A stretch of 62,062 nucleotides of DNA, the filler included, from Hausera hauseri (taxonomy: Eukaryota), in NCBI GenBank assembly GCA_046269625.1. It is 12 parts of 12 records of this genome, joined end to end, with 100 filler letters (N's around TTAATTAATTAA, not from the genome) between each part and the next. Parts side by side here need not be neighbours in the genome. Positions count along the whole stretch, not along the records: positions 9,837 to 14,481 come from JBJURY010490243.1; 11 more parts are not named here. The stretch is one strand, 5' to 3'. The position numbers and the translations under genes were made by a program. The notes under the pieces were generated by a model. It did not search any database. It was not told the DNA's origin and saw nothing but the letters and a program-made list of their open reading frames with translations. Below are positions 1,890-57,942 of this stretch, piece by piece (position 1 is the first letter of the stretch; every line of letters starts with the position of its first letter).

Positions 1890-4241
1890 TTATGCTCCTG
1901 TCAGTTTATACAGTACATCGAAACCAATAATGAGATCAGAATACGACTCTTGTGGGTTGGCATAACAAGCAACATCTATATACCCTATGGTTAGGTCCAA
2001 TTTTCCGCATGCTTCGGGTATATAATAGGTAATTCGTCTATATAATCGCAAATTTATACGAGTCAACGGGGTAGTAGTATAAAGTTCCGCATTAACATAC
2101 TTACCGTATACCTTAACCAATATTGGTATTAATAAAGGATAATCATTATAATTCTGACGATAATGCATGTTATATAACAATTCTAGCCTTTTTATCTCTT
2201 CTTCTAGTTTGTTTACATTTTTTCGATATTTCTCTAGATCTTTAGTTTTCTCCAACGAATGTGTAGCTACGTTTATCACTATATCGTAATCTATTAACGT
2301 ATCTCTACCTATAATGCAAGGAATGGTGGAATTTTCTAGTATGTGGTATAAAATCTTTGATCGTTTATTTTTTAATTTGGTCAAGGCTGTAACTACGCCT
2401 ATCACCTTTAGCTGATTGCCATTTATTAGTTTGTGATTTATCTCACTACTTTCATTTAACTTTAGTTTTAAAATTTCTATTGTAGTCTTACTTAAGTAAT
2501 TTTTTGCTGCTCCTGTATCTATTATTGCTTCGATTTTAACTTTATTTATAGTTATAGTTGTAGTTACCATATTATTTGACCCATCTTCTATGAATGCCAT
2601 CGTTGTGTTTTTGTCCTCCAGCTGTAATCTGTTCCTCAATGGGTATCTGCAAGGTGGTGTTTGATCTGCATTCTCATCATCCAGTTGCATTCTATTCCTT
2701 AACGGGTACTTACAAGGTGGTGTTTGCTCCAGTTTGCGCTCTTTAGCTACGGGTCTACATCGCTGTACACTCATCCAAGAGGTTTTATTTGGATTGGACA
2801 AATTCTGCAATTCTACACTTGATTCAGTTATTTGTAATATCTTATATGGTCCTTTATATGGTAATTTCAATTTTGGGCTTTCACCGGGTTTACAGGTCTC
2901 ATCTAATATATTAACCAAGTCTCCGATTCGATACATATGGGGTTTTGTTTTCTTGTCGTATTGGTCCTTATAATTTTCTTGGTGATATTTAATTTTTAAC
3001 CCTGCTCTAATCCATGCTTCTTGCAATCTTTCCTGTAGGATTGTTGCATAATCCGGTTCCTCCATCAGTTGAGACTGTGGTGGTCTATATTCGAGGTCAA
3101 TTGGCATAATATCTCGTCTGCCATATAGTAAAAAGAAGGGTGATTCCCCAGTTGTTGTATGAGGGCTTTGACGGTAAGCGTATACACAAGGTTTTATATA
3201 TAAATCCCAATCAGCTGGATGATCGTAGGCATAACTAGATATCATGATTGAAAATTGTTTATTAAATGCTTCTACTGCGCCATTAGCTTGTGGGTGATAG
3301 GGTGATGTAAATTTATGATTAACTCCTAATATCGCCAATACTTTCTCCATAAGTTCGCTGCAAAAATTACTTCCTCTATCGGATATTATTGTCATCGGTG
3401 CTCCATATTCAAATATTACGTCGTCAACTAATCTTCTGGCCATAACATCCGTAGTTTGGTTTATCATTGGCATCGCTATTGGAAATTTTGAGTGGTAATC
3501 AATAGCTGTAAGTACACATGTATTTCCTCTAGCGGTAGTTGGTAATGGTCCAACTATATCAACGCCTATACAAACGAATGGTGATGCTAAAACTGGTATT
3601 GGTTTCAATGGTGTTTTTCTTGCTTGGAAATTTCCTCTTCTTTTTGAACAAACTTGGCAGTTTGTACACCAATCTTTTACATCATCTGCTATCTTTGGCC
3701 AATAGTACTTTTGTTTAAGTCTGCCTAGTGTAGCTTTATAACCTCGATGTCCTCCGAGTTGTCCATCATGATAGTGCATTAAAAGTTTTGCTCGCATATG
3801 TTTCGGTACTACCATAAGTAAATCTTCACTATCCTGGTAATAGATATTTCCCCTTTCCATTTTATATTTATTTTTGCTCCCTTCTTTGTTTAGGCTATTA
3901 CGGATTTTACGAATTTCGTCATCCTTCGCTTGTTCTTTAGCTATAGCTTCATGTGTGATTGGTATAGACAAAAATATGTGCATTTCTTCATTAACTTCTG
4001 CATTGTCCACCTCATTTATCATAGTCTGAATCAAGTCGATCATCTTATAGTACTCATATAAAATATCTTCTACTAACGGGTCTTTATAGTCACTTTGTCT
4101 TGTATTCTGTTGATTATCCTTGTTAAGTGTTTGAATAATCATACTTATAAGTTGGTCTGTATCCTTAGTGCGTTTTTTACGTATTGCCTTGGGTACACTT
4201 GGATGGACTTTCTGCCAATAATATTCTTTCAGATCCTGCAT
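1890..4241 (-). CDS. Pol segment: integrase + GPY/F + duplicated YPLRNR motif + retropepsin domain + degenerate second retropepsin
   Basis: 783-aa ORF. AIIDTGAAKNYLS...CIIGRDTL lies C-terminal to integrase. It is followed by LVKVYGKYVNAELYTTT...DLIIGFDVL. Confidence 0.85.
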   Translation of the reverse strand: MQDLKEYYWQKVHPSVPKAIRKKRTKDTDQLISMIIQTLNKDNQQNTRQSDYKDPLVEDILYEYYKMIDLIQTMINEVDNAEVNEEMHIFLSIPITHEAIAKEQAKDDEIRKIRNSLNKEGSKNKYKMERGNIYYQDSEDLLMVVPKHMRAKLLMHYHDGQLGGHRGYKATLGRLKQKYYWPKIADDVKDWCTNCQVCSKRRGNFQARKTPLKPIPVLASPFVCIGVDIVGPLPTTARGNTCVLTAIDYHSKFPIAMPMINQTTDVMARRLVDDVIFEYGAPMTIISDRGSNFCSELMEKVLAILGVNHKFTSPYHPQANGAVEAFNKQFSIMISSYAYDHPADWDLYIKPCVYAYRQSPHTTTGESPFFLLYGRRDIMPIDLEYRPPQSQLMEEPDYATILQERLQEAWIRAGLKIKYHQENYKDQYDKKTKPHMYRIGDLVNILDETCKPGESPKLKLPYKGPYKILQITESSVELQNLSNPNKTSWMSVQRCRPVAKERKLEQTPPCKYPLRNRMQLDDENADQTPPCRYPLRNRLQLEDKNTTMAFIEDGSNNMVTTTITINKVKIEAIIDTGAAKNYLSKTTIEILKLKLNESSEINHKLINGNQLKVIGVVTALTKLKNKRSKILYHILENSTIPCIIGRDTLIDYDIVINVATHSLEKTKDLEKYRKNVNKLEEEIKRLELLYNMHYRQNYNDYPLLIPILVKVYGKYVNAELYTTTPLTRINLRLYRRITYYIPEACGKLDLTIGYIDVACYANPQESYSDLIIGFDVLYKLTGA

Positions 4242-4768
4242 GTCAGTATAGTCAAGATTAGGGTGATCGCTATAATCTTGATCAATATCACCTTTTTGAA
4301 GTCTTCACAGGAAATCTGCATTAGCGTTTGTTATTCTTGTCGATATTTTATTAAAATTTCCAGGTCCTGAATTTCTGCAGCCCATTTCATTAATTTTCGA
4401 CTAGTATCCCGTTGTTTCATTTACAATTGCAAAGGTTTTTGATCAGTATATAGTATTATCTTTCGTCCTGTAATATAATACCTAAAATACCGTAAGGCGT
4501 ATACTATGGCGTAACATTCTCTTTCAATTGTTGACCATCTACGTTGTGTTTCACTTAATGTTTTACTGACACATGCTATTATTCCTTCGCCTGGTCTGTC
4601 AGGAACTGATTGTCGTAAGACTGCTCCTGTTGCATAACCACTGGCGTCGGTCATGATTATATAAGAGTAATTAGGATCAGGAAACTGTAGTATTGGTGGG
4701 GAAGTTAAAACTTGTTTTAAGACTTTGAATGATCTATGATGTGTTTCTTCCCAATTTCATGCTGTTCC

Positions 4769-9836: not shown

Positions 9837-12000
9837 GATCTTTTCATTTCATTAAATTCCTGTTCCAAAGCATTACGTCTGCGTAGCGACAAAGGTCTGG
9901 CCTTTTGTTTGATCGGCCTCTGGTGCTCTGTTACTATGTGATGATAAGTTGTGAATGGAGGCTTGAAGTTGAAGTCCCTTTTAACTATGCGAAAGCAAGA
10001 CATTGTGACGTATGATTGAAGATTGGAGTCTAGAGACAAAAATGAATGAGGCATGTTAATAGAGAAAACAGCTCCAGTGATTGACGAAAAGCAGCTGGCA
10101 TCGCTACTGTCGACGTCTAATTTGGATTTTTGTTTTAGGATATTTTTATGATTGTCGTTCATAATGGAAATATTGGCGACTTTATCGGAAGTTTTTTTAT
10201 AGATGAAGAAGCGTTCAACAAGTTCATAGATGAGCGCAGTGAATTGCTCGCTAAGTTGTCTATGAGACACATGTTTAGAGTTGCAATTGAGTTCCTGCTT
10301 AAAAGACAGCTGTATTTGCAATCGCCCAATAGATCATGTGCGGTGAGAAAATCTGAGCCTATTATGGGAGATTTAATGTTGGCCACGTGGAACTTCCAGA
10401 CAAACTTATCCGGCAAGTCGACAAATGTGAAAGTTAATTCCGTGGTTTTTGCAACAGGCAATGATTGACCACTAGCAGTGAAAATCGGTGGACAGGAAAT
10501 CATAGTCGATGTAGGAACGAAGGACAAGGGAAGGAGCGAAAAGGAAGCTCCTGAGTCTATAAGGAAGTCGATATGTTAAGTATGTCTGCTTAGCAGTACA
10601 GCTTTCAACAAAAAGACTGTAGAGGCGGTGTTGAAACGGCCAGAAGATTGAGCGATATTGCCTGAGCCAGAATGTGCCGATAAAATCTGGCGGCATTATT
10701 AGTTTTTTGAAGGTTTTGGAAGAAAGGAAGAGGAAGAGGAAAAGCGAGGAGATTTATCGATGTAATCTTTACAACCAGACACACATGATCTAGCCCGTGA
10801 CTGAAACTTATTGTGATATACGAAAATGGGGTTGTCCACAGCGTACTGTTCGCTGTAGAACCGACAACTCAAAAAACATTTCCGAACATCCCTTCGAAAT
10901 CACGTGTGATAGAAGCAAGTCATGCGTCCGCCAGGTGACATGGATCGAGTAGAGTGTCTGGCAATGCTTCTCGCCCTTGAAGTTGTGGTTTCACTTCTTC
11001 TAGGCCAATTAAGATTATTTATTTGGGTAGTAATGGCCAAAATCGACTGTTGCAACTCGTCAAACTGTTGCTGCATCATTTGCAATTGTTGTGAAAATGA
11101 AGTATTATGTGTGTGAAGGTGTGTGAGCAGTTGCTGCAGCTGCTTGTTGTTGACTATTATATTGCAAAATATCAAAGCTTTTGTCTGCCAATAAGGCGAG
11201 ATTTTCAAGGGCCGTTGAGTCATCTACTACAGTGAGCAGCGCTTTGATGGAGGTTGGCAAGGATGAAAGAAAATATTGACGAAGAAGATCGGCATTGTTT
11301 ATAGGAGTGACGCCTAACGAACTCAGTTGAGATATTGCAGTTTTAAGGAAATCCGACGGTTTTTGATTAACGATGGCATGTTCATTAAAGTATTTCTGAA
11401 TTATGCTGTCAATGAAAGGGTCGGTAATGTGCAGAACTGATTCATAAAGCATATCATATGGATTTGAAGAGGTTAGTATGTCAACCAGATTATTGAATTG
11501 CTTCTTGTTATTAGCTGGAAGTAGTAGCAACAAACTGTTCGCCCGCAAGAAGGAATCTGTGATATGATTGGCCTTAAGCCATTGCAAATGGAATTGTAAC
11601 CAGGTACGACTCGAATTCGTCTTGTCGAGAAAAAAATTTGTGCAAGGGAGATTTGGAGATGTAGTCGGTGTGGGGTCGGCAGGACGTCGAGCAAATCTGG
11701 TCTTATTAGGGTTTTCCGGATAAAAAGGATCGGAGTCCAATCCAGCCGGTAGGCGAAAGTGAAGAGTGAGATGGATAGTTTTGGAGGAAAATGCAGAAAG
11801 TTGGTTATGGACGTTGAGTATAGAACCATGATATAAGCGATAAAAGTATGACGAGGTGAGGAGAGAAGATAGATGTGCGTGAAAGTGATGAGGGGTATCC
11901 GTGTGTGGCGCATAGAAGGTATGGAGGTGTGTATTATTGAAGAAGATAAACAGGGATAAGGGACGCGGTGCAGTGTGGGTGGTCACGCTCGACTTCTCAC
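9837..12000 (-). mobile_element. Ty3/gypsy family B, 5' part: UBL-Gag, two Cys/His knuckles, protease, start of RT (degenerate)
   Basis: Gag motifs KPSDFL and LLRQYFLSSLP. Knuckles CFYH..F....KC...C and VYHNKF...ARSC...C. Protease FLIDSGAS...IIGSDFL. RT start HHIVT..RPIKQKARPLS. Confidence 0.92.
11741..11956 (-). other. Ubiquitin-like domain at the N-terminus of Gag (ends RLPAG)
   Basis: 72 codons SLFIFFNNTHLHTF...HFHAHLSSLL...YFYRLYHGSIL...IHLTLHFRLPAG follow the ubiquitin pattern. Homologous to 58099-58311. Confidence 0.65.
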
Positions 12001-12049
12001 CCAAATCATCGATAGCTCTTTCGTTGATAGCTCTATCTTGATTTGGGCT

Positions 12050-14340
12050 ATCATAGTTCCAATGTGACATATGACACTCATGTAAACTACCAGCGTTGTT
12101 TTGCATTATAAAGAATAAAATGCCGATATGTAAATATCTATCATAGTTACCTTTTGATAAAGGTAATTCGAGCAATCGCTCTTGGGGTATTTGCGTCAAA
12201 TGAACTGGAGTAGTACCGTTATTCAAAAACGGAGTAACTGTAACATTAGACGAATCGGAATAGGAAAGACCAATGTCATCATCATTATCTCGAAACAATC
12301 GTGGACTACGTTTGATCTGTAATTTTATGAGGTTGAGATCTATGCCAGCACCCCATTCTTTTGCATCAGCATTCGGTGGTAGACATTTGCTATTAGCCTT
12401 GCGGTTCTGCACACATGAACCGGTAGTTCTTCCGCCAGCATATCAGTTGGGAGTTTGTTCAATGACGTATTTAACTGATTGTCCTTCGATATCGGCAACA
12501 CAAGTTTAGACAGATTTATTTGTCGTGAATTTGTCAAGAAGACTTTCAGAAAAGTTGAACTGTTTACAAAAACTGTTGTACAATGTCCTATTGACTATAC
12601 ACCCGATCAACGATAGAATACTGTTCCAAATTGCCGGTGATTCTATTTTGTCAAATACAACACAGACTTCTCGTACAATACAGGCTAAGCATGATTCCTG
12701 GTTGCTATATATCATGACGAAATGTTCAAGGAGGGTCATCAGTAGTCCGTATACATGATCGTGGTTCTTTAGATAACCAATACAATTGGTTATAATTAGG
12801 AGCCAGTTCTCATCGTAGTACATGTCATTAAGTATATACTTGGTTAGCATGTGAAGAATGTGACATTGTGTTATAATATTTTCGACGTTGTTCCGTCGAG
12901 AGGAAGCGTTCAAATGGCGAAAAAAATGAAATACGAATGAGCTGTACGTGCAGAAAATGTTAATAATGTAGTTAATGATAGCCACACTACGTTCATAAGC
13001 CAGGGTAATGATGTGACGCAATGCTTCACTAAGATGGACGGAATGAGTTGAATTGTAGAAAAAATGAGTGAGAATTGCCAATGTGTGGATCATTCCATCA
13101 ACGCTATACGAAAACGTCTGGCATCCTATGGCATATTCACATTTTTTATTAATAATATGAGCTATTTTATCATCGAGTTTCGTACGTTCCTCATCATACG
13201 TACTAATCAAAATGTCGAAAGCTATGTGAGGAATTGATGCACTTCTTGCCATTCGACTGATATATCCACGGTACACCGGAAACACGATATACATCCATTT
13301 GGTTTTTGGTACACAGTACTGATGTCGTATCAGATTCTCGTGTAGTATTTTATCGTTTCCGTATGACACTTTCTTTCTGATGGTGACAGGGTAACGTTTA
13401 CCATGTTCAAGTATGTCCAACTGACTGACAGTCAATAGAATTCCCAGTAATTCCGAATCGATTTTCGATTCACTATATGCAGAAATCTTCAGTGTCTCTT
13501 TATCGGATGTCTTGGAAAAGAAACTCTTAATTTCTTCGATAGCCGAGGGTGAATTGTTATTGGAGAATTTGCAAGAAAACAATGAACAGAAGATCGACTG
13601 GAAAGGAAAAGCAGTTTGGTATTCGTGTGGCATCATTTTCAGAAAGCAAGAAGTAAAACTGATTTGGTCTATTGTACCCCAGTAGACAGAGAACACTGTG
13701 ATGTCGGTGTCAATGGATAATACATATCCACGAAACCATCTCGACAGTTTATAGTAGATATCTCGACAGACGATATCATTGTGGTTGATATCTTGACAAT
13801 TACGGTCGTATTTGTTTTAGAAACGGACGTCTTGCCCGGTGATGGAGTTTCGTCAACAGCAATCGACATACAATCGTCCAGCAGAAAGTTGAGATATTCT
13901 TCTAAAGCAGTTCTTGTTTTTTACATCAAATTCCCGTATCCACGATAAGCATCTTCAACGATCACGGTTTCGCTGAGCTGTGCGTCGTAATGAATTTCGG
14001 CATTTGATGTTATTTTTGAGGAGTTCTGAAGAACATTCATTTCATCATGCAAAACGGTGATGATGATATTGTCCAGTCTACATTCAAGTTCGTGGCACTG
14101 GGCTTTATTTTTCAATTTCGATATAAGGTCTATGTACATTTTATCACCAAAACTGCATTTTTGTACATTTTTGTACATTTTATCATCTGCAGAATGATTA
14201 AAAACACGGATGTAGAAATGAATCGTTTCCAACGACAAAAGTGCAGCATTTTCACTGTAATGGGTTTCATGAATTTTTTGTTTGCCATTTCACAGATTTC
14301 AGTAATTTCTTTCTTTCTTTTGATTGGTAAAATTCTGACA
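12050..14340 (-). pseudogene. Cluster of intronless, closely packed, partly broken ORFs of unknown function
   Basis: ORFs 13921..14238, 13669..13869, 12506..13696 and 12340..12537, plus the N-terminal part of 11105..12412, all lie on one strand and abut or overlap. No motif recognised. Confidence 0.45.
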
Positions 14341-14594
14341 CCAATTTGTGGTCACTGTGACAATGAAAGATGATAAGTTATGAATTCCAAAAAAACAGGA
14401 AGGCTGATAATTAAAGATTTTATTCAACTACAAATCCTTTTCACATTTTGTCTGTCATTACATTAAAATATCTGGAAACTGNNNNNNNNNNNNNNNNNNN
14501 NNNNNNNNNNNNNNNNNNNNNNNNNTTAATTAATTAANNNNNNNNNNNNNNNNNNNNNNNNNNNNNNNNNNNNNNNNNNNNAGGTTGCAGCTCT

Positions 14595-15799: not shown

Positions 15800-18700
15800 T
15801 CATTCCAAACGCTAATATCCGTACGTCCAACTCTTATTCCGCCCCACCCACTTACGCTTATCATTGCATGATAAACCGACTTTTTTATTGGTCACCGTAT
15901 ACAGCCGGTGCTCAATCAATCGGATGGTCGTTTGTGACACAACAGCTTTTGTTTGTCCTCCGTTTTCTCCTTCATAGATTCGACGCTAATCACTGTGGTC
16001 TAATTCCGTCTGGGCCAGCTGAACTCCTTTGGCGCGAATTTTCGGCCTACCGTTAGTTCAAAGGCTATAACATTTTGTCCGTATAAATACCCATTCCCGA
16101 TACTAATGCCGACTTTACTTTCATCCTTGAAGCAAGCGATTTTCTTTGTGATGGCGTTGCTGTACAATGGATGATTCTGTGGATAATTGCACGTATATAT
16201 TAATCAGTTTGCCATCATTTGCCATAGTAGTTGTTCGCGATTGACGTTTTTAATTTCCAAGAAAAAACTATTGGTGTCATCGGCAATTATACTGATCTTG
16301 CATCTACCGCCGAACATTTGCCGATAACGTACCAAATCGCGATATCGCAGCTCATACATCCGTAACTTGCTCAGATTTAATACCACTTGTCCTATATAAA
16401 TTGGCCGGTCTAGTACGACTTCTTTCCTGTTTAAAAGAATGGCAACTAATTTATCGTCAATGCACATTGATCGCCTGAACTGTGACTTGCTCGTGTATGT
16501 GACAAACCGCTTTCCCTATTGCATAGGCGTACATTGAGCTACTTTCTCTGATTCAATACTGTTTTTCCGTAGAGCGAATTTTTTTTTCATTTTGTAATAG
16601 TCTTTTTCAAACTTCGTACAAGCTGTAGCTCGTTTTTCCGAATTCCGACTGATATACGACTTGAATATCGGAGCCTGTGCAAATCGGATTGCGCGATGCA
16701 GCTGTGTGATGCATACACCAGGCTGCATGTAAAATTGCAACAGACGCCAATGAACAATGTAGTTTTGTTTAAGTACATGCGTCATAAGCAGCTTCTTCAA
16801 TTTCGACCCCGGCGAACATTGGCTGATTGGTGCGACCGGCAGTTCATCCAGAAAATTATGCGGCTCATCTGGTACCACGAGATCGACTTTTATCATGTAC
16901 CCGATTCAGCTGTTTTCTGTTGTGCCTGCTCTCGGCAGATTTTTCCTGTATTGTGTTCAGTTCCTGTTTGTCGACTATCCATTCGAATGAATCGTACAGA
17001 AGGGTTGCGAAAGCGCCCAGCCGTACAGATTATTAAAGTCGATATAAAACAGTGATATGGTATCATCACTGGGAGCAGTAGCAGCACTATCATGGCGTTT
17101 GTTGACAAATGTCATGCCGCCACGAATACCAACATTAAACATTCGTACATTTCCGGGTTTTTCAATAACTTAATATCCCGATCCAGTGACATTAGACCTG
17201 ATGCCAAACTCATTCCTGCTATTGAGTAAAAGTTGAGTGACTGCAGCCTATCTTCTGCAAACGCTTTAGCTCGAAATGTCTGAAACAGATTGGCTAATAA
17301 GTATACGTCCAGTTTCAGATACTAAAGCATGTAGTTCAACAGGTTTCTGCAGCCGAGCTCTGCCTAAAACGACTATGCTTTGTGATATTCTTCTTTTGTG
17401 ATACATGGCCATAGCGGTGATAATTTGTCTGTCGTCTGCAGCCGCTCGTACGATATTTCAAAGTTACACGGGAATATGCCTTTGTTACGTGCAATATGTG
17501 TAGGGAACTGCGCCAATGTTAGGGTACATGTGGTATGGCGTTTACCAGCTTTGCCAGATATTCACTGAAAAATTGCAATAAATCTAAAAAGCGTACCCGG
17601 AATCGGCCCATTTCAAAATATGNNNNNNNNNNGCCTTGTCAAATGGAATGAATTACATGCGGCTCCAAAATATCGACCGGTAAAATTATCATAATTCGGT
17701 ACGAGCCGTTCTTGTGCATCGAACGGTAATATTTTGTGGCACAGGTAACATTCATCTGTGACTGCAAACGTCAGGCGTCCATCATCTCTATTCAGATCAG
17801 AGGTTTGGTGCTATTATCGAAATACCACGGTGCAATTTCAGTTTCCACTATGGTTTGCAACTACTGCAACAAATCGCGAACACAATTCCATCCGTGAAAA
17901 ACATAATATTGAGGTTGACCGGCGGCTTTTATTGGGACAACCAACATACTGACGGCGATTGGAATATGTTTTTGGTCATATATGTTGTGCTATGGTAAGA
18001 CAGCTTCGATATCGGCATATACTACGTATGCCGGACTGTCTATTTTTGACCAATCAGTGAACTTGAGTTCCTTTTTGACGGGCATGACATACATTGTGGT
18101 TCGTGACGAATTTTGCCTGCACAGAGTCACATGTTTCTCCCATGTTGTTTCTGATCTAAATCCGTACAGACATACAGGATACCACTTACATTGTATCCAT
18201 TTTTTGAAGAATTGGTCACGTTCCATATTCAGCTGTCTGTCCAGATTTGTCACTGCAACGTAATGGAAATTTTCCTTTTGCTCTAACAACAACAAATTTA
18301 TTGTGTGGCCTTTCGGGTTCCGACTACAATAGATTATATCCACATTGGGATTCTGGTACATTTCTTTATCTACCGGTATTTCAACTACTGAGTTGTACCG
18401 GGAGACGTTGATTGACATCGTTGGATTACGCCGTTCGAAGGCCGCTATGGTTTTTAATTTCATGGGCATCCAGCATCCATCGTAATTTAATTCTTAAAAA
18501 TATTTCTGACACTGTTTTGCACTATATGTACTATATCTGTCCACTTGGTCATAGTTCAATACCTCCAGAATACTGTAAAGAAAACAGTATTCATCGTTAG
18601 TATTTTTTACATTTACTACCGCCAGAGACTGCTTCAGAGCTGCAGTGTGAATGATCGTCCCGATCAATATATTATGTCACTAGACTTTGTTATGATAAAG

Positions 18701-19200
18701 CTGACGGTGACATTTTTATAATTCGCCATTCATTACGCTTTTCGGTATAGTTGGCGATTTTATTCTCGAGCTTTTCGCCTACGTCGGCAATAAAATTGTC
18801 GGAATACTTCGGCTCGATGTCATAGGTACCACTGTTTCCTGCCACCTTACAAATTTTCAAATTCTGCCAGTGGATAATATTGCACTTTGCAGTTGTGTTA
18901 GAATTTCACCACCTCTGATTCCAACCGGTGGCGTACATTTTGCGTAACATATCTCAATTACGTTGTTGTTGTTTTCGCCGACATGTTCACTTTTATGTCC
19001 ACGTACGATCTGTTCAGATTGTACTTGACTATAATATTGGGAATATTGGCTTCCAGCTGCTCATTATCTTGTTGTTGTTGTTGCTGATGCTGTCACTACT
19101 GCTTCTGTTGCTGCTGCTGCTCTGTACTTTTCTGATTAAATCGACAAAACTTGTTGAGGCCTAAAGTTTCCTACTGATTATTGAGGGGATGTTGTTGCTG
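15800..19200 (-). pseudogene. Polinton/Maverick-type protein-primed DNA polymerase B (copy 1), many stops and frameshifts
   Basis: Motifs MPMKLKTIAAFERRNPTMSINV, HYVAVTNLDR, VVYADIEA, RGGMTFVNK, KDYYK, LDRPIYIGQVVLNLSKLRMYE and ADDTNSFF. C-terminus KKVGLSCNDKR..YGY. Confidence 0.93.
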
Positions 19201-19620
19201 CTTTTAGTTCAGTCCATAAATAGTTGTTTTTCCTACCGCTTAAACTGGTCTAAGTTCATAGTTATAACTGTTTATAGTTAATTTTAGCAAGTATTAAACA
19301 ACCGGGCAAACGTTGTCTTGTTTATTACGCCGCGTTGTGGTGCCATAGTACTGCTCAATTACATTATGATAATCACTAACTTTGTGCACTTTAATACTGA
19401 AGTAGCGTGGGTATGTAGGGCAATGCGTAACCATCATCTTCTTAGACCGAGTAAACGGTCCGAGTTGATGCTTGGGCACCTCATAAAAGTCGGCGTAGGG
19501 GCCTTGGGAACAAACATCATACGTTGGACACACATACGTGTCCTTTCCTCCAACGCTGTAACATTTCTTCATCTGTTGATGGCATTGATCCTCCACATAT
19601 ATACTCAAGACACAATACAT
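19200..19620 (-). pseudogene. Small Cys-rich ORF immediately upstream of pPolB (copy 1)
   Basis: YVCPTYDVCSQGPYADFYEVPKHQLGPFTRSK is clearly homologous to 24750-25162. Confidence 0.7.
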
Positions 19621-20699
19621 GGAATACTGCTTACATTTCGAAATTTAAACAAATTAACATTTAAAATAGATAAAAATNNNNNNNNNNNNNNNNNNNNNNN
19701 NNNNNNNNNNNNNNNNNNNNNTTAATTAATTAANNNNNNNNNNNNNNNNNNNNNNNNNNNNNNNNNNNNNNNNNNNNCTACACCACACACACACTCTTAG
19801 AACTACTGTATCTCAGCAGAAAATAACCTTAAGCGAGTAACATCTTGACCTCGGCGACGATAAAGGAATCCTTATCGAGGCCGCAGACGCAATAAAAAAA
19901 AAAGAAAGGGAAAACAATTCTGCCACTTATACATCATAAAAGCATGACAGCCTCCCTCTGCTCGGTCCTCCCCCCCATACCTCCAAGCACAGGCGCTTCT
20001 AAGCATTTCAAAGAAACCAGTGTTTGAGTGACTCCGATGTGGGAGCTCAGAGTCTATAGCTGTGGATTAGACTCACAGCAAATAGTAGCATGGAAGAAAC
20101 AGAGGTAATCTCTTCCCTCTCCCTCACAGCCCTCTCTCCATACCTGGTCCTCCGGTTTTTTTTTAAGCTCCTTACTGAATTAGTTCTCGCAAAGCTGCTC
20201 ACACAGAGAGGGGTTTATGCGCAGTGGGGGGAAAACGCTGCTCTGGATTCAAAAATACTCAAATATATAAAACACTGGAGAGCAAGTTTGACCGAATTGT
20301 CAAAACAAAGATCTGGGGTTCAGATCTAGAACTGATTCGGCACCAACTACAAATGGACATCAGATATTTCATTTCTGAAAATATGCAGATGGCCAGGAGT
20401 GGAGCTAGCAGCATCACTCTGGCCTGTGTGCCTAATACTTATCCCTTTGAAAATAAAGTTGATTTGATTTGTAATCCCTGCTGTAAGAAAAAATGGTCCT
20501 CATTCACTTAAAACTCTCCTCTTATACCTTGGCCTGTAGTTGTTGTCCAGAGAGTTCTCTAGACTTCTCTTTTGACTTTTTCTGGATTTCTTCTAGTCCT
20601 CGATCTTTGACAGCCTATTCAACATTGTCAGTCCAATGTCTGTCAGTCCAATGTCTTTTGTCTGCCAGAAGACAGTTACCACTTTGATGTCTGGTTTCC

Positions 20700-21265: not shown

Positions 21266-24200
21266 TTATCTCAAACGCCAATATCCGTACGCACAACTCT
21301 TATTTCGCCCCACCCACATTCGCTTGTCATCGTTGCATGACAAAGCAACCTTTTTATTAGTGACAGTATACAGCTGGTGCTCAATCGATCGTATGGTCGT
21401 TTGAGACACAACAACCTTTCATTTTCCGTCTTCTCCGTCTTGTCCATCATAAACGCGGCTATAATCACCGTGATTTATTTCCGTCTATTTCAACTGGATG
21501 CCTTTTGCCCGCATTTTCAGCCCCCATTCCGTCAGAAGACTGTAGAACTTTGGGAATAGGAATATCCATTCCTTGAATTGAACCCGGCCTTCACTTTTAT
21601 CTGTGAAGCAACCGATTTTGTTTGTTACTGAGCTGCTGTACAGCGGATAATTCTGCGGATAGTTTGACGTGGTCAGTAGTCCATCTTCCATTACTTGTCG
21701 GAGCAGCTGGTCCCGATTGATGTTTTTCAGCTCAAGGAAAAAGCTGTCTGTCTCACCGGCAACGATACTGATTACACAGTCGCCGCCGCCAAACATTTGC
21801 CGGTAACGTGCCAAGTCGCGATACTGGAGCTCGTACATTCGCAACTTGCTAAGGCCCAATACCACTTGTCCGATGTAGCTTGGCGGGTCCAGAACGACTT
21901 CTTCCCTGTTGAGAAGCACGGCGACCAATCCATCGGGAATGTGCATATACCGCCTGAATTGAGCCTTGCTGGTGTACGTAATCAGTCGTTTTTTGTTATT
22001 GCATAGGCGCACATTGAGCCATTTCTTCAGATTTTCCACTGTTTTTCCGTGCAGTGAATTATTTTTCGGCTTGTAATAGTCCTTTTCGAACTTTGTACAA
22101 GCTGCGGCTCGTTTTCCGGAATTTCCCTCAATGTACGCCTTGAATATCGGCGCCTGATTGAAGCGGATTGCACGATGCAGTTGTGTAACGCATACACCGA
22201 GCTGCATGTAAAACTGCAGCAGACGCCAATGAACCACGTAATTCGATTTGGGTTCATGTGTCATGAGCAGTTTCTTTACTTTTGTTGAGCCGCCGGGTAG
22301 ATTTTGGCTAATTGGTGCGACCGGCAGTTCATCCGGAAAGTCATGCAGCTCATCTGGTACCAAGAAATCGACCTCCATCAGGTATCCGATTGAGCTGTTT
22401 TCTGCAGTTGTAGTGTCTGCCGCCCTCGACAGATTTTCCAGTATTGTGTCCAGGTCTTGTTTGTCGACTATCCATTCGAATGAACCGTACGGCAAGGGCT
22501 GTGAAAGCGCCCATCCGTACAGGTTATTAATATCGATGTACAACATTTACGTTGTATCATCACTGGTTACGTAATGTTTGTTGACAAACGTCATGCCACT
22601 ACGAATGCCAAAGTTAAACAAGCGGTACATTTCCAGGTCTTGCAGCAGCTCAATGTCCCGATCAAGTGACATTAGAACTGATGCCCAACTCATTCCCGGT
22701 ATTGAGTAAAATTTGAGCAATTCCAACCTATCTTCCGCCAACGCTTTAGCCCGAAACGCTTGGAATACGTCGGCTTACAAGTACACGTCCAGTTTCAGGT
22801 ACTGGAGCATGTACTTCAACATGTTTCTGCAGCCGAGCTCTGTCCACGCTTTCTGTGCTCTGTGGTACTCGTCTACTGTGATTTCGGCCCATTGTGGCGG
22901 CAATTCCTCTGTTGTCTGAAGCCGCTGGTATGACACAGCAAAGTCATATTAGAATATGCCTATTCTGCGTGCAATATGCGCAGGGAACTGCGTCAGCGTT
23001 ATCGGCACATCCAGCAAGGCACTTACGAGCTTTCCTAGAGACTCATTGAGGAACTACAATGAGTCAAGAAACCGTACCTGAAACCGATTTATGCGTGCCG
23101 ATAGAGACAAGTACTTCTCCATCGTTGTTGGGATTAAGGATAGCTCCCTGTACGGCCCATTTCAAAATATGGTAACAGTCATAACCTCGAAAGTTATAAA
23201 ATATCACCGGTAGGAATGGCCGCACACGCCTTGCCAAATTGCATGAATTGCATGCGGCTCCGAGATGTTGATCGGTGAAATGATTATGATCTGGTACGAG
23301 CCGTTCCTCTGCATCGAACGGTAATAAATTGTGGCACAGGTAACATTCGTATGTGGCTGAAAACATAAATGGTATATAGTCGTCTGTCCACGTGAAGGGT
23401 TTATTGCTATTATTAGTTTACCAAGGTGCGATTTCCGTTTCTACTATTGTTTACAACTGATGCACGAAATCACGGATGCAGTTCCGGGCGTGGAAAATGT
23501 AATACTGCGGTTGACCAGTGCCTTTTATTGGGACTACCAACATACCGACAGCGACTTGGTCTTATGCTTTTGATCGTATACATTGAGCCGTGGAAAAATG
23601 GCTCCAATATCTGCATATACCATGTATTCTAGACTGTTGGATTTTGACCAGTCACTGAACCTCAGCTCCTTTTTGCCTGACATAACGTATATTGTTGTTC
23701 CAGTGGAATTTTGTCTGCAGTGTCACATGTTTCTCCCATGCAGTTTCCGATCTGAATCCATGTAGACATAAAAGTCACCATTTACACCGTATATGCTTTC
23801 TGATGAACTGGTCATGATCCATGTTCAATAGTCTGTCCAAATTTGTCATGGCCGCGTAATGAAAAATTTCCCCTTGTTTTACTCTAACGGCAACAAATTT
23901 ATTGGGCGTCCATTCGGGTTTCAACTTCTATAGATCATGTCCACATGGAGGTTCTTGTAAATCTCTTCATCTTTCTGTATTTCTATAACTGTGTTGTACC
24001 GGAACACGTTAATTGACAATGTTTGGTTACGTCGTTCAAACGTGAGAATGGTTTTTAGTTTCATCGGCATCTAGCTTTCATCAAAATCCAATTCGGAAAA
24101 ATACTGCCGATACTGATTTGGACTACTAGCATGTTTTCTGTCCATTTTATCATATTTTAATACGGCTATAATACTGTAAAAGCAGTATTCATCGTTCTTG

Positions 24201-24750
24201 TTTTGTACATTCTCCACCGCCAGAGACTGCTTCAGATCTGCAGGTGTAGGTATGAATGACCTTCCGGACAAATATATCACGTCACTTGACTTTGTTATAA
24301 TAAACCTGAGTGACAATTTTTATTATTCGCCAGCTACTACCCTTTTCGGCATAGTTGACGATTGTTTCGTCAAGCTTTTCGCCTACATAGGCAATAAAAT
24401 CGTTGGAATACGGTTGGGCTCGATGTGACAGGTACTACTGTTTTCTGTCACCTTCCAAATTTTCAAATTCTGCCAGTGAATAATACTGCACTTTGCAGCG
24501 GTGTTGGTGGTTGTGTTGGAATTTCTTCACTTCTGATTCCACGCTTTAATTGTACTGACTTTTTTGGTGTCATTCCAACTTTTATGTCCACGTACAATCT
24601 GTTTAGATCGTACTTGACAGTAATGGGAAGGTCAGGTTCCTGTTGTTGTTGCTGCTGCTGTTGATATTGTTGTTTGGTATTTTGTATGTGTTCATCAAGA
24701 CTTGTAGATGCTTGACGTTTCCTGCTTCCGACCATGCTGCCTCGACCATT
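21266..24750 (-). pseudogene. Polinton/Maverick-type pPolB (copy 2) with endonuclease VII-like insert
   Basis: GRSFIPTP..NVQNKNDEYCFYSI; CYLC...DHNHFTDQHLGAACNSCNL; YNFRGYD; LYIDINNLYGWALSQPLP; YYKPKNNSLHGK; GETDSFF. C-terminus KVALSCNDDKR..AYGYWRLR*, with the stop at 21266. Confidence 0.96.
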
Positions 24751-25162
24751 ACTATTTGCTTTTTGGACCGCTGAAATTGATTCAAGTGGTCCTTTTGCTG
24801 GTCATAAAATTGTTCATAGTTGATTTGTACTTCAACTCTAGAATAACCGGGCCAAAAATAGGCCTGTTTATTGTGCATCTCTGTGACGCCATAGTACTAC
24901 TCCATTCTACTTTCACCAACGTTGTACACTGTTGTACTATTACAGCACAGTGGGTATACGGGACAAAGCACATTTATCGTCATCTTAGACCGAGTAGACA
25001 GGCCAAGGTGATGCTTGTGCATTTCATAAAAATCGAGGTATGGACAGTGGGTTGGAATATTACACGTTGGACACAAATATGCGTCTTTCCTCCAAAGCTG
25101 TAATATTTCGCAATCTCTTGATGGCACTTATCCGCCTCATGTGTGCGAGAGGCGCAGTCCAT
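24750..25162 (-). pseudogene. Small Cys-rich ORF upstream of pPolB (copy 2)
   Basis: YLCPTCNIPTHCPYLDFYEMHKHHLGLSTRSK. A 1-nt indel relative to copy 1 lies near 25085. Confidence 0.7.
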
Positions 25163-25429
25163 GGGATATTGTAAACATTTCTAAATGCAAAACAAAAATT
25201 ATAAATAAAATAAATTAAAATACATAAACGCTTAAAATTAAAATTAAACATAACCCCAGTGGTCTATTAAATTGCATTACTCTGTTATAAAAATTTGTTA
25301 CCCATACTTCTACTACCACTACTAATCAAATGGAGCAGTACATTCAAAGTGAGATTGAGAAATTGGACGATGACATAATGACTGCACATGAGTAGTATAT
25401 AATTGCTGGTTCTGGGCCACCCCTCTCCA

Positions 25430-40590: not shown

Positions 40591-43500
40591 TAGAAATTTT
40601 TATTACGGCAACAAATACGATATTGCCAACTGCGTGGCACCTATTACTGATACTTACAGCTGCCAACACCATTTTCAACACGAACAACACCACGTCACAA
40701 CACCTCGTCTACAGCTCATACCTCACCTGAATCCAGTCATGATCCATCGACACCACCTGAAAACTTTTCATCGTTGCCCTCTGACTTACAGCAATATATC
40801 TCGTCTTCCTGCACACGTCTGTTGCAAAAGGATAAATCATTTGTACCACCTAAATCCACCTTCTATCACATAGTAACAGCATGTCAAATACCAATACGTC
40901 AAGAGGTCCGCCCGCTATCGCCTCGCCGCAGACAGGCAGTGGAGGCTGAGTTTCTCGAATTGGAAAAATCAGAAATAATCAGAAGATCCAAATCCCCTTG
41001 GTCTTCACCACTACATGTTGTTCCAGAAAAAGATGGTACCTTTTGCCCATGCGGTGATTACCGCCAAATCAACATCATAACAACAATGGATGCCTACCCT
41101 CTACCATTAATCAACAATATCCTTCACAGGCTACATGGTTCGACCATTTTTCCTGCATTGATTTACATAAAGCATACCACCAAATTCCGGTGGCCCCAGC
41201 AGACATTCCAAAAACGGCTGTCATTACACCTTTCAGCCTTTTTTTAATACCTTTTCATGCCTTTTTGACTCCGTAGCACTTCCCAGACCTTCCAAAAGCA
41301 TATTGATGCAGTTCTCTCAGGTTTAGATTTGGCTTATCCCTATATCGATGATATCCTAATTGCATCATCTTCCTCGAAACAACACTCCGAGCATTTACGT
41401 TTAATCCTCCAGCGCTTGCGCCAAAACAACTTGCAAATTAATTTCTCCAAATGCTCTTTTTTCAACATAAGGTCAACTTCCAGGTACATGTTGTTAGCTC
41501 CTCCGGATTTTCACCTCAGCTATAGCGCATCAAAGAGCTCAAAAACATACAGCTACCACGTACATCAACAGAGATGCGTTCTTTCCTCGGAACCTTGTAC
41601 TTTATTCATAAGTATATTCCACACTACTCCACCCTAACCGCTCCATTTGCATCACTAAGCTCTGAAAAGAAAAAACAACCTATTCAATGGACCGCCAAGC
41701 TAGTCAACGCTTTCGATCACCTCAAAAAGTAATCTAGAACCGTGGAAATCCTGGCCTATCTCGACTCCCATGCAGAACTTTTTTTAACCACGGACGCATC
41801 CACAAGAGCTGCAAGGGCCGTCCTCCATCAAGTTAAAAATGGATCTCATGAGCAATTAGAATTATTTTCTCGAAAATTCAAGGAACAAAAGCAAGGATAT
41901 TCCACCTTTGACAGAGAGTTGCTTGCAAAGGTCCTTGACGTGAAACACTTTAAGCATCTGCTAACCGCACGAACCTTTACAATACAAAAGGACCACAAGC
42001 CATTGCTTTAAATTCTCACAATGAAATCGTCTTCTCCACATTAGGAGAGGCAAATATCGTATTTGTCCACATTTAATTTTGAAATTAAGCACCTAAACGG
42101 AGTTTACAATTTAGCAGCTGACTTTTGTCCCGATCAGTCAGCTCGATTGATTTTACACTAATTTTCCCTCAGTCTAGACTTCAACACAACCAGCCACCTC
42201 CTGACATCTTTAAATCATTTAAATCTTGCAAAACCATCGACGGTATGGCCCTTGACACCTCCAAACCTAATAATCCTAAAGTCATTCTTTTTGAATCGCT
42301 TCGAAAAGAAGCATTTAATAGCATCCATTCGTTGCACCATCTTGATGTTAAGGCCACTTTTTGTCTCTTACAACGCCAAGTAGTATGTCTGTCGATGCGC
42401 TCTGACGTGCAAGCATGGGTTAGGCAGTGTGTGGCATGCCAAAAATCCAAAGTCACTAAGCACTTAAAGCCACCACTATATCATTTTTCCTGTACTTCTC
42501 GTTTTAGATCTGTTCACATTGAACTTGTAGTCCCACTATCTTTAGACAACGGCCATCAGTTCATCCTCACAATGATGGACCGTTCCTCGCGATGGCCAGA
42601 GGCTGTCCTGCATTGGAGCACCAACACAGAAACAATCGCAGACGTTGTCATCCGCACTTGGATCAGCAGGTTTGGATTACATCGCCACATAATTTCGAAC
42701 CAAGGCCCACAGTTCAAATCCAACTTGTTTAAAGCTCTTTTTAATCGACTGGGAATTAACCACATTCACACGTCACCATATCATCCTCAATCGAATGACC
42801 TTCTCGAACGCTTTTACCAAAAGATGAAAACGTCTCTCAAAATTCTTGTTGAGTCCAGTCGCAGTTGGACTACGCCCCTTTCGTACGTTTTGCTTGGCTG
42901 GAGGAACACGCTATCTACTTCAACAGTCTATTCTCCTGCAGAAGTATTATTTGGTACTTCTATCAGACCATTGTTTAAGATGGCTGAGCTGGACAATATT
43001 CCTACAGACAAATAATACAAGCTGCCCAGATACACTTTATTGAGATCAGCAAAGACTCATTTTGTATACTGTTACACGGAAATAAACCCTACATACCCGA
43101 CGATTTATATACCGCCAAGTTTGTATGACTAAAGAATCGGACGCCGTGTGGTTTTCAACCTCAGTATGTTGGCTCTTACAAAGTAATTTGTTTACACTCT
43201 CACAACATCATCATTCTCAAGAAAGATAAAGAAGTAACAGTCCACATAAAAAACGATGCGGCTCCCATCGAAACTACTTCTCCACCAACATATTTACACG
43301 ATGCGCAGCAATCAAAAAATTCACCCCCCCCCATGTCTGTTCAATTCTTAATCCAATTATCTATACGTTTTCTTCAAAAACTTCTACTTCAATTTATTTT
43401 CATAGTTCACCCCCTTTTTCTCCATCCGATTTTGCACCTTCAAGCCTTCTAACACCTTCTTCATCCCCTGGTGACAACCTGCTTTCTCCTTTTACAAAAC

Positions 43501-44262
43501 CTCCGTCAAACACACTTCAACTTCATCAANNNNNNNNNNTCTCCCGATCCACCCATTTCACCATTCCAGCCTCTTGCATACCACCTTCCAACTACTTTCC
43601 TTCGCCTTCTCCATCGTCTTGCTCTCTTCCATTTTTTCCCTCTTCACAGTCATCTCACTCTTTCTCCCTTTTTCTTCGACACCTTCCTCATCCTCGGCAC
43701 TATCTTTCTCCCTCTCTCCTCACACATCATCTCTTACCCCCTTCATTTTCGCTTCGCAACTTCCTCCTCTCTGTACTTCTATCATTATCTCTCCTCCTAT
43801 CTCTATTACTACTTCTGTTTTATCTTCTACTTCTACTTTTTCACCTAATACAGTTTCAATTTCTACGCCACTTTTTGTTTCTCTTCCTTCCTCCGCCACT
43901 ACATCTCTTTTCAGTCCTTTGTCTTCCAACCCTCTCTTGAACACCTTCAACCGTCTGTCACAAACAACCTCTCTTCCTTCTTCACCTTCTTCTTCTATTT
44001 ATTCTGACTCATCTTCGCACGACACAACACTCAAAACAAAATTTGACAATTTTTTTCCTAACTTCAAACTCTGCAAGCAAACACATCGCATAAAGATAAC
44101 ACACGCAAAGTCACATTTAGCCAGTATAGCAGGGAAAATCAGTATAAGGCACCCAACGTCTTGTTCACACTAAGACCAACTGACACAGACACTTTGCGTT
44201 TAGCGATTTTTCTTACCGTCTATTTTACTATTCATAGTTTTCACTTTGCCACGGAGGGGTGA
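40591..44262 (+). mobile_element. Ty3/gypsy family B, 3' part: RT-RH-IN, Ser-rich low-complexity tail, polypurine tract
   Basis: SPWSSPLHVV, PCGDYRQIN, YIDD, TTDAS, YSTFDRELLA, ISNQGPQF and YHPQSN. PPT GGAGGGGTGA at 44253-44262. Confidence 0.94.
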
Positions 44263-44600
44263 TATAGTGCCTACGGCGGCCGGTGCCCTCTGGCCCATTT
44301 TGGTTGGACACGGCCGGGCGTCAGTTGCCGCTGCATCGGGCTCGATCTTGCAACTTTTCGCTCCAAAAATCAAAATCAAAAAGATGTTCCCGATTACCAT
44401 CCATTATTTATTACGTCCGCGCAACGACCAGCGTGTCAAGAAATAATACTTCGCGCTCTATCCAATATTGCGACACGATAAACGCTCATATTTGCGAACC
44501 AAATTAAATACCAATGTTAACAGTTTTTCAGTTCTAAATACGCCAAATGCCCAAAAAGCCGTTCCTTTGGTAGCAGTGAAGAAGTTCTGAACGATTTTAA
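44263..44600 (+). mobile_element. Probable 3' LTR (right end not defined)
   Basis: Begins TATAGTG (variant of TGTAGTG) immediately after the PPT, with a GC-rich start. Confidence 0.55.
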
Positions 44601-45585
44601 AATAGTTTTACTATCGAAACCGTTTTTCAATTCGAATACTCCGCCTGTTTTTTTCTATAGAATTATACGCAAGTCGGCCACCAACAAGTATGTGAAAGAC
44701 TGCGTCAGTTAGTCAGCAATAGATCGGCGCAAAACAGTATGAAAGCTTCCGTACAAAGCCAACAAGGTAGCTCTTCAAACTTTGTCTATTTGGTATCCCA
44801 GAACAAATTCGGTATGGCGAAAAGCCCATCCAAAGATCCTCCGAATTATTTAATGGGTACCCAACCAGAATCAAATCGTCACCGGTACTTCCAAAAAAAT
44901 AAATCAATTCGAATGTCCTCAAAGATTCATTAGCTAGCGACGTGCTTGAACTGGAAGAGTTTGTAACTGATAAGTCTGGCCTACAATTGATAAAACCCAA
45001 TAAAAATTCAAATCCTACCGCGGCATCTACCAATCTCAGCACCCTGTTCCCAAATCCAAAACAACCTCATCATCACCATACATCTCACCATCGTCATATT
45101 TTCAGCACCATCACCATCACGTAAACAATCCGAATTCCTTGCCAAATGTAGATATTGGCTCGCCTATGTCGAGAGAAAATACAGCACAACAGGACTATTA
45201 GAAAGACTTTTGTCCAAATAATTGGCATTATTTTCTGTGATGTCTCATATCATAAACACGATGATGTCCTTATTGTAATTGTTCGATTGTCCAGATTGAT
45301 ATTTTAGTGCCGCTGACGTGATAAAATGTCTTAATATGTTATTATTCACATTTTGATTTCACCTTTGTTCATACACAACATGTCAAATCGGTATTCTATT
45401 GAATTTATGTGAATTTATTATTGTGTAAACATTCAATCTTTATTATTCTCACATTCCTGCCCTTTTTTATTTCCTTATCTTTTCANNNNNNNNNNNNNNN
45501 NNNNNNNNNNNNNNNNNNNNNNNNNNNNNTTAATTAATTAANNNNNNNNNNNNNNNNNNNNNNNNNNNNNNNNNNNNNNNNNNNN

Positions 45586-57063: not shown

Positions 57064-57942
57064 GATGAACCTGACCGAACGACAGTATTATCCCAACCAG
57101 TAAACCACTGTAAGTTGAATCCAAGAGTGATACTTGTCGATTCAAAGCCCACATGCATAAATAATTTTAAAACTGGAGCATGTAGAAATATTTCTAGTGG
57201 CGAATCAATGATCACTGACTGTGAAGATTCTGGTAACAGTTTTGCTCGACGAAGTCTCAATTCTGGTATACGATTAATACGATTGTTTCCACTGCGGCTA
57301 TTCAAACTATCTGAAATAACGAATAATTTGGATGCATTTATCGTCATTAACAGTATGCGTGATGGTACGGGGTCTAGAGTTGGTGCGATGATAATGCAGC
57401 AATTAGCCGTTGATTATCCCAAAAGAAACCGAATACAATTGGTATTATTCCCCAGCCAGATAATGTCTACGGCGATCGTTGAACCATGCAATAGCTTATT
57501 CCATAGTCATACAACACTAGATACGTGTCATTTGTCTATACCTTTTAATAATGACGCTCTTTATGACATTTGTAAATATCTATTGTTCATAAATTCACCA
57601 TATTATTCTAATCTCAATCGAATAACATCTCTAACGATTAGCCCATCTACAGCATCAGCGCGATTTGAAACAACGATAAATTCTAGTTTAAAAAAAGTGC
57701 ATACAAAATTAACACCCTACCCAAGGATACACCACGCAATAATGAGACATTCTCCAATTCTGCACGAAACACGATTTAAGTACTCCAGTCCATCGGTCGA
57801 ACAAATTATAAGGAGTGTCTCCTCGAAAGATCACCAAACGACTAAAACCGACTTAAATAAAGGGAGATTCATATCGATTGTTATGAACTATCGCAGTACA
57901 GTTAAGCCGAGAGATGTCATGATGACAATTCAGAAATACCGA
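57064..57942 (+). pseudogene. Highly divergent alpha-tubulin (approx. residues 45-335), truncated by gypsy sequence
   Basis: PRVILVD, EDSGNSFAR, DGTGS, STAIVEPCN, HTTL, ALYDIC, NLNR, TASARF, PYPRIH and YRSTVKPRDV align with alpha-tubulin. The GGGTGSG signature is altered to RDGTGSR. Confidence 0.93.

Follow-up and report, generated by a model that had tools for sequence, protein, structure and literature searches.

Introduction

The N-terminus of Gag in LTR retrotransposons is normally set by a start codon, and processing is carried out by the element's own protease. In the ubiquitin-ribosomal fusions (eS31, eL40), ubiquitin is fused head-to-tail with its partner and is released by deubiquitinases (DUBs); a role as a helper of folding or expression has also been proposed for such fusions. 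In cytopathic pestiviruses, host hydrolases cut an inserted ubiquitin, and NS3 obtains its N-terminus in this way (PMC8310069). Among retrotransposons, the CHCC zinc knuckle (CX2HX9CX3C) defines the CsRn1 elements, with a clade comprising CsRn1, PwRn1, AgCR, Kabuki and Boudicca (PMC2582038). The planarian giant gypsy elements, Burro / GYPSM1, are described with an internal Ubi2/SUMO-like domain that follows a CCHC Gag, the whole polyprotein having ~5000 aa (PMC6431247), and in the copia-type Ty1 the primer binding site lies within the GAG reading frame (PMC4974528).

The presented analysis concerns a further arrangement, in which a ubiquitin-like domain (UBL) with a Gly-Gly end stands directly before the Gag part. 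Two copies of it were found in the window, that is, the whole stretch of 62,062 nucleotides that was analysed, composed of twelve eukaryotic contigs with N spacers between them. Judged from the sequences compared, the UBL-Gag layout is a real and lineage-wide feature, for which a cleavage mechanism is predicted. No report of a Gly-Gly UBL before Gag was found in search listings of the open literature, and the word "ubiquitin" is absent from the text of PMC12440569, PMC12471100 and PMC8220671; Repbase, Dfam, GyDB, subscription journals and supplements lay outside this scope and may annotate one.

Results

The two copies are decayed Ty3/gypsy gag-pol elements placed on different contigs. Copy A (contig 9837-14481, minus strand) carries a UBL at 11741-11956 (minus), whose translation is a stop-free segment of 72 aa ending in RLPAG, i.e., with an Ala-Gly tail. 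A Pro/Ser/Thr-rich linker without conservation relative to copy B (z 0.8) joins the tail to the capsid (11645-11740, minus), and the capsid part of Gag (11105-11644, minus) has no stops, is helical in the predicted model and ends in a frame break near 11105-11160; DUF7041 was detected in relatives only. The first CHCC zinc knuckle, recognised by motif match, has a stop inside (10864-10917, minus), as has the protease remnant (10246-10623, minus), after which the contig runs out before RT. Upstream of the UBL, 162 stop-free codons stand in frame with UBL-Gag (11957-12442, minus). Copy B (57064-62062, plus strand) carries its UBL at 58099-58311 (plus), supported by translation and profile and ending in RTRGG, i.e., with a Gly-Gly tail. 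Its Gag (58447-59380, plus) is intact to ~58635, then shows a frame change and 5-6 stops, and contains two CHCC knuckles in tandem (59156 and 59249). The pol remnant that follows (59458-62062, plus), identified by comparison with the pol of locus L007, is in PR-RT-RH-IN order with frame changes and stops. The UBL of copy B is preceded by a GC-rich leader (57943-58098, plus), which is stop-free in the Gag frame and in which no primer site was found, and by a diverged alpha-tubulin fragment without introns (57064-57942, plus; ~residues 60-332) that shares its open frame with UBL-Gag. Both window copies are relics, broken further downstream. The 5' frame, composed of the upstream piece, the UBL and the N-part of the capsid, is intact in both (11105-12442 and 57064-58635) with the remaining Gag broken, which may be the reason that these copies were noticed at all, or may mean that a truncated capsid protein is kept.

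Several other features of the window were recorded in their own right. A third related element (40591-45485) is represented by its 3' half only, with a GC-rich LTR head, a pyrimidine-rich low-complexity stretch at 43230-44173 and a polypurine tract at 44253. The region 1890-4304 (minus) is a single ORF in which the integrase domains precede an aspartic protease domain, an unusual order, and a tandem satellite array with a period of ~169 bases fills a whole contig (4869-9736). Two copies of one segment, 71-75% identical, occupy 15806-19677 and 21272-25221; by eye this segment looks like a Polinton-type DNA polymerase region, and its scanned ORF gave no Pfam match.

The initial annotation held that the same 72-aa segment precedes Gag in two diverged copies and that it is maintained by selection rather than captured by chance; the first statement was confirmed and the second supported. 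In the codon alignment of the two UBL segments, 28 of 68 aligned residues are identical (z=9), and the alignment score of 97.5 was reached by none of 1000 shuffles (11.2+/-9.6). The identities are distributed over the codon positions as 37/48/27, with pN of 0.36 and pS of 0.74 (saturated), and the homology to ubiquitin was established via relatives. The N-terminal block of Gag shares 28 of 59 residues between the copies (z 17.6). The UBL segment is under purifying selection of about the same strength as the capsid. The codon-alignment check proposed in that annotation also gave UBL similarity well above that of the upstream 60 codons, in which similarity between A and B was absent in the shuffle test (z 9 vs -1.3). 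However, what had been called an adjacent non-coding leader is actually free of stops in the Gag frame of A and of B, and because it is open in this frame and non-homologous between the two, it is a poor neutral control. The sequence landmarks quoted earlier are present, but their spacings were off by one or two residues; the corrected forms are F.F.NN.H..T, SSLL.SS.FY....G and CT.FF.D...SS.TWLQFH.

As single sequences, the window UBLs gave no match in Pfam, PDB or Atlas, and the ubiquitin-family identity of the segment is taken from the profile of its relatives, not from the window copies' own matches. A search with a profile built from both copies returned 53 proteins out of 1.84 billion. 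A word-based homologue search returned only the chimeric record P0005, and a profile homologue search returned 7 proteins, one of them a new UBL-bearing one (P0072). P0005 combines the C-terminal half of this Gag with an unrelated PF19089 protein and is probably a chimera of assembly or gene calling. In viral contigs, none of the 71 and 63 pattern matches was confirmed as a relative. Profile A4, built from 32 members with the near-ubiquitin P0043 left out, gave 372 PDB matches at E<=0.01. The 60 matches listed consist entirely of ubiquitin, ubiquitin fusions or variants, and ISG15; the eS31/eL40 ubiquitin-ribosomal protein fusions are among the PDB matches, and single-copy ubiquitin chains reach E values of 1e-8 to 1e-10. 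With a leave-out UBL profile, from which the window copies, P0006 and P0007 were excluded, copy A reached 27.2 bits and copy B 19.9 bits, and for each of them 0 of 1000 shuffles, tail-preserving ones included, scored as high. PF00240 was detected at E<=0.01 in 9 of the 53 database matches. A two-sequence model of the UBL has the ubiquitin order of strands and helix (pLDDT 58), and in Foldseek the ISG15/ubiquitin chains rank first with this model, weakly (E 0.02, TM 0.52); in a single-sequence fold of UBL-Gag, the UBL was unresolved (pLDDT <50).

The pattern of conservation within the domain was described with positions numbered after P0043 and with the usual roles of the ubiquitin positions (buried core, Ile44 patch, chain lysines). 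A hydrophobic residue occupies each of the core positions 3, 5, 26, 30, 50 and 67 in all aligned rows. The R72-L73-x-G75-G76 tail is the best-conserved part of the UBL, with G76 in 30/30 rows, G75 in 29/30, R/K72 in 24/30 and L/I73 in 27/30. The Ile44 patch is lost (position 44 is mostly T/S, 8 mostly N/S and 70 mostly N/H), K48 is retained in 9 of 30 rows, and positions 8, 42, 44, 70 and 63 are variable. Most UBLs are 21-31% identical to the near-ubiquitin member. A near-true ubiquitin (Pfam 73-91 bits) is nevertheless present in L001, L002, L003, L007 and P0043, and on a Gag tree of loci and relatives, from which L002 was left out, L003 pairs with the diverged L006 (95) and L007 with the diverged L008/L010 (99). 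The two forms thus alternate on the tree and appear interchangeable, which suggests that host ubiquitin was recaptured repeatedly or that the 5' module was exchanged; by either route, ubiquitin and the diverged domain occupy the same slot.

On the Gag tree of the database matches (53 rows, i.e., copy A and 52 matches, with P0050 and copy B left out, and with a midpoint root), all 34 UBL-bearing rows fall into one branch of 42 rows, with support of 91/88, which is under the tool's starred level. The other 8 rows of this branch are gene calls that start downstream of the tail position, and in the 11 rows without a UBL outside it, one CHCC knuckle or none was detected. The CHCC Gag signature, matched once in copy A (with a stop) and twice in copy B, is doubled in most UBL-bearing relatives. 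On this tree, the UBL-before-Gag layout marks a retrotransposon lineage. No convincing match to the tRNA-Trp primer-site motif was found upstream of either copy, and the clade placement is derived from the Gag tree only, which contains no named reference elements. The elements are therefore filed as CsRn1-like, not as members of the clade.

The tail was considered further together with the residue that follows it. A Gly-Gly tail shortly before Gag is found in 33 of the 53 database matches, a count that is partly circular because the tails were picked by pattern (five by hand). The loci fetched by Gag patterns alone gave the same picture, with Gly-Gly at the UBL end in 18 of 18 that span the domain. 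The Ala-Gly of copy A is the state of its subfamily and the sole such case among 35 proteins. The initial annotation treated PAG as one substitution away from PGG and proposed that sister copies be collected. Among the 43 contigs of run X1 aligned to 11705-11800, 21 (depth 258 of 271) read Arg at the Pro of copy A, and no variant of >=5% is listed for the Ala-Gly codons; three of the variants listed for the region are synonymous. As sisters read Arg and no Ala-Gly variant is listed, the Pro is private to copy A and Ala-Gly is common to its subfamily, and the comparison with PGG was the wrong one. Only differences away from contig ends were listed, and the window itself may derive from X1; this evidence on the sister state is therefore good but not complete. 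G75A is tolerated by several DUB classes and G75V is not (PMC7391069). Nor is the Leu that follows the tail of copy A kept, being Ser in 11 sister contigs (depth 102 of 166) and Trp in 1. Across the lineage, 27 of 35 proteins have S, M, G, A, T or V directly behind the tail; among the loci, 15 of 18 have S, A, T or G there. Ser is the most frequent, and Pro never follows the tail (0/35 proteins, 0/18 loci).

The UBL-Gag architecture proposed earlier was borne out, but the open frame that enters it from the LTR side had been missed. Twenty loci of one subclade (A7) were fetched by Gag patterns, and 18 of them span the UBL. An exact 11-base motif lies 135-500 nt upstream of the UBL in 12 of the 18 and corresponds to the tRNA-Leu primer site reported for Steamer elements (PMC8905726); of the other six, three have too little upstream DNA and three end ~190-220 nt upstream, where the motif is absent. 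By their name prefixes, the loci stem from four data sets, and several of them are close sisters; the twelve primer-site loci are therefore not independent cases. Ten of the 12 have a Gag frame without stops from the primer site to the UBL, a state reached by 0-144 of 5000 shuffles for these AT-rich leaders. The open frame extends a further 37-129 codons above the site in the 10 loci; an in-frame ATG stands before the site in all 10, and in 4 of them none stands after it. The site itself is read in phase 0, 1 or 2, differing by locus. The exceptions are L007, which opens only after the site, and L016, which is out of frame. In L010 (273) and L020 (409), an in-frame ATG is formed with the initial bases of the primer site. 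A polypurine tract follows pol, 340-685 nt before the primer site, in 6 of 8 loci examined, and its position therefore places the ATG inside the LTR in 5 of these 6 (the open-frame ones). Terminal overlaps occur in the contigs of L002, L006 and L008, and the locus contigs probably represent repeats that were collapsed, with a single merged LTR. The pol ends of L001, L002, L006, L007, L008 and L015 all show a basic-x-V-x-F motif, which resembles a PP1 docking site.

Peptides matching the three readings of the site were also found upstream of the UBL in 11 of 19 database proteins with enough leader; some of these matches are probably due to chance, and gene calling is a source of bias for the long upstream frames of such proteins. 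The LTR read-through is a result for subclade A7 only. The LTR-coded part is near-neutral in the closest pair (dN 0.35, dS 0.43), and dN of the UBL is lower than that of the leader in 7 of 8 pairs. Met occurs within six residues of ubiquitin position 1 in only 2 of 35 proteins, this position usually being I, R or F; P0072, called with Met at the UBL start, and L003, with Met at position 1, are exceptions. A decayed start codon at position 1 was considered and rejected, as relatives rarely have Met there. In the window, the upstream frame of copy A, with in-frame ATGs at 12106 and 12070, was open in 0 of 5000 shuffles, and one X1 contig covers 11924-12322 with zero differences. A candidate tRNA-Leu-like primer binding site at 11991-12003 (minus) is degenerate, weak and post hoc, with an equal score in 42 of 2000 shuffles. 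The leader of copy B, 49 codons long, was open in 1375 of 5000 shuffles.

Host-gene pieces were found in the same open frames. The frame of copy B runs via the GC-rich leader into the alpha-tubulin fragment. This piece is ~36% identical to alpha-tubulin by our own count, gap-free and stop-free, with an altered glycine-rich nucleotide motif; it may be a divergent paralogue, or cargo selected only to remain open. Pfam detected host fragments in the same predicted ORF upstream of UBL-Gag in four relatives (P0006, P0016, P0019 and P0025), which include Rrp44 (DIS3) and CNOT1, histone H2A, SCC3/SA and 5'-nucleotidase; this count is biased in that the four were called as single ORFs. The upstream frame of copy A gave no Pfam match and may be LTR cargo or a host gene. 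Just upstream of it, a 436-aa ORF (12506-13816, minus) had no significant Pfam or PDB match, and it likewise may be a host gene or LTR cargo. The upstream DNA of A and B, compared with the third window element and the loci, gave one 35-nt match only (E 0.014). The DNA upstream of both window copies may be captured cargo; no second LTR is present on these contigs.

Discussion

The presented results make it probable that the UBL, fixed before Gag in a CsRn1-like Ty3/gypsy lineage, serves as a linker which host deubiquitinases cut after Gly-Gly, or after Ala-Gly in copy A. Translation would start at an AUG in the LTR or the leader and, in some genomes, inside a captured piece of a host gene. The precursor would then have the form [variable peptide]-UBL-GG-Gag, from which a host enzyme of the USP/UCH type could free Gag with a fixed, mostly stabilising N-terminus, and the variable upstream peptide would be waste. 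On the side of the sequence data, the aligned members establish the ubiquitin ancestry, the purifying selection, the conserved tail and the loss of Met from position 1 in nearly all of them, and in the fetched relatives a stop-free Gag frame runs from the LTR across the primer site into a leader of variable length and sequence. The host DUBs may fail to recognise most of these UBLs because of their low identity to the near-ubiquitin member. The aspartic protease of the element itself was considered an unlikely agent of this cleavage, Gly-Gly-Ser being atypical as a site of retropepsins.

The same domain could act mainly as a helper of Gag folding or expression, or as an uncleaved interaction module, with the trimming of the upstream peptide being incidental. 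The retained fold core and the UBL dN well below dS agree with such a role, but it leaves the long open frame through the primer site, read in three phases, unexplained, and it does not fit a tail that is the best-conserved part of a domain whose surface patches are lost; we consider it unlikely. The released UBL might itself be the useful product, conjugated to targets or acting as a decoy against the host ubiquitin system. The cut would indeed expose a C-terminal Gly, some members carry a near-true ubiquitin, and Burro elements are described with ubiquitination-related domains (PMC6431247). However, positions 8, 42, 44, 70 and 63 are not conserved, K48 is kept in a minority of rows, the divergence is fast, a common surface is absent and the subfamily of copy A has Ala at 75, which together render this role quite unlikely.

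Two further readings concern the ends of the linker. A start at or near the UBL, from a non-AUG codon or a spliced mRNA, would turn the upstream open frames into chance or a gene-calling artefact. Near-cognate codons (CTG, ATT) do occur near ubiquitin position 1 in the window copies, and a leader as short as that of copy B is often open by chance; nevertheless, position 1 is usually I, R or F, and the AT-rich leaders of 135-500 nt are open in ten of the twelve primer-site loci far more often than shuffling allows, so that a start of this kind is very unlikely. At the other end, the initial annotation had proposed that cleavage exposes an N-degron which limits the lifetime of Gag. With the established classes of stabilising and destabilising residues, the Leu of copy A, the Ile of copy B and the L, I, K, D, N or Q found in 8 of 35 proteins speak for this idea, but the stabilising residues that prevail in the proteins and loci, and the Ser of most sisters of copy A, appear largely to refute it, and we regard it as highly improbable. 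The deubiquitinase-cut linker thus remains the preferred reading.

A more tentative extension, which may well not hold, is that the linker makes Gag independent of the start codon in use. Gag could then be expressed from any AUG of the LTR, even one that came with a captured host fragment, since host DUBs would cut off the waste peptide, and this would allow the lineage to fill its LTRs and leaders with host mRNA pieces and stay mobile. If this is true, each active copy would be a source of translated host-fragment-UBL chimeras, with tubulin in copy B and DIS3/CNOT1, H2A, SCC3 and 5'-nucleotidase in relatives, and it offers a possible reason why such elements tolerate host-gene capture in their LTRs. 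Should host deubiquitinases take over the step that sets the Gag N-terminus, this would mean both a new strategy of expression and a new dependence on the host. The lineage also provides a natural series of ubiquitins diverged to ~25% identity, which could be used for mapping DUB requirements.

Compared with the known systems, the elements are like the CsRn1 clade in the CHCC knuckle, the DUF7041-type Gag of relatives and the PR-RT-RH-IN pol (PMC2582038). Unlike that clade, as it is characterised there, the UBL lineage has an N-terminal UBL-GG, two tandem CHCC knuckles and a Gag frame that comes from the LTR; its primer site is for tRNA-Leu (12 loci) in place of tRNA-Trp, and it forms the separate 42-row branch of the Gag tree (91/88). 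With Burro / GYPSM1 it shares a ubiquitin-fold domain in a protein of an LTR retrotransposon (PMC6431247), but the elements are of ~5 kb, the UBL stands before a CHCC Gag and has a Gly-Gly end, and the giant polyprotein with CCHC Gag and internal SUMO-like domain was not found. The primer binding site within the Gag reading frame recalls Ty1, for which the passages at hand report no UBL (PMC4974528), and in the UBL lineage the peptide read through the site is variable in length, phase and sequence, and its removal is predicted. The ubiquitin-ribosomal fusions begin at the Met of ubiquitin and yield functional ubiquitin, whereas here the UBL is internal and its Ile44 patch is lost. The closest parallel in mode of action would be that of the pestiviruses, in which a host-derived ubiquitin without a start of its own, placed behind unrelated host sequence, sets the N-terminus of the downstream protein. 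In the described cases, the ubiquitin is sporadic and near-intact and belongs to an RNA virus (PMC8310069), whereas here the domain is fixed, deeply diverged and present before Gag throughout a lineage, with cleavage predicted. If this prediction holds, the ubiquitin trick of pestiviruses would have become a stable, lineage-wide property of a mobile element.
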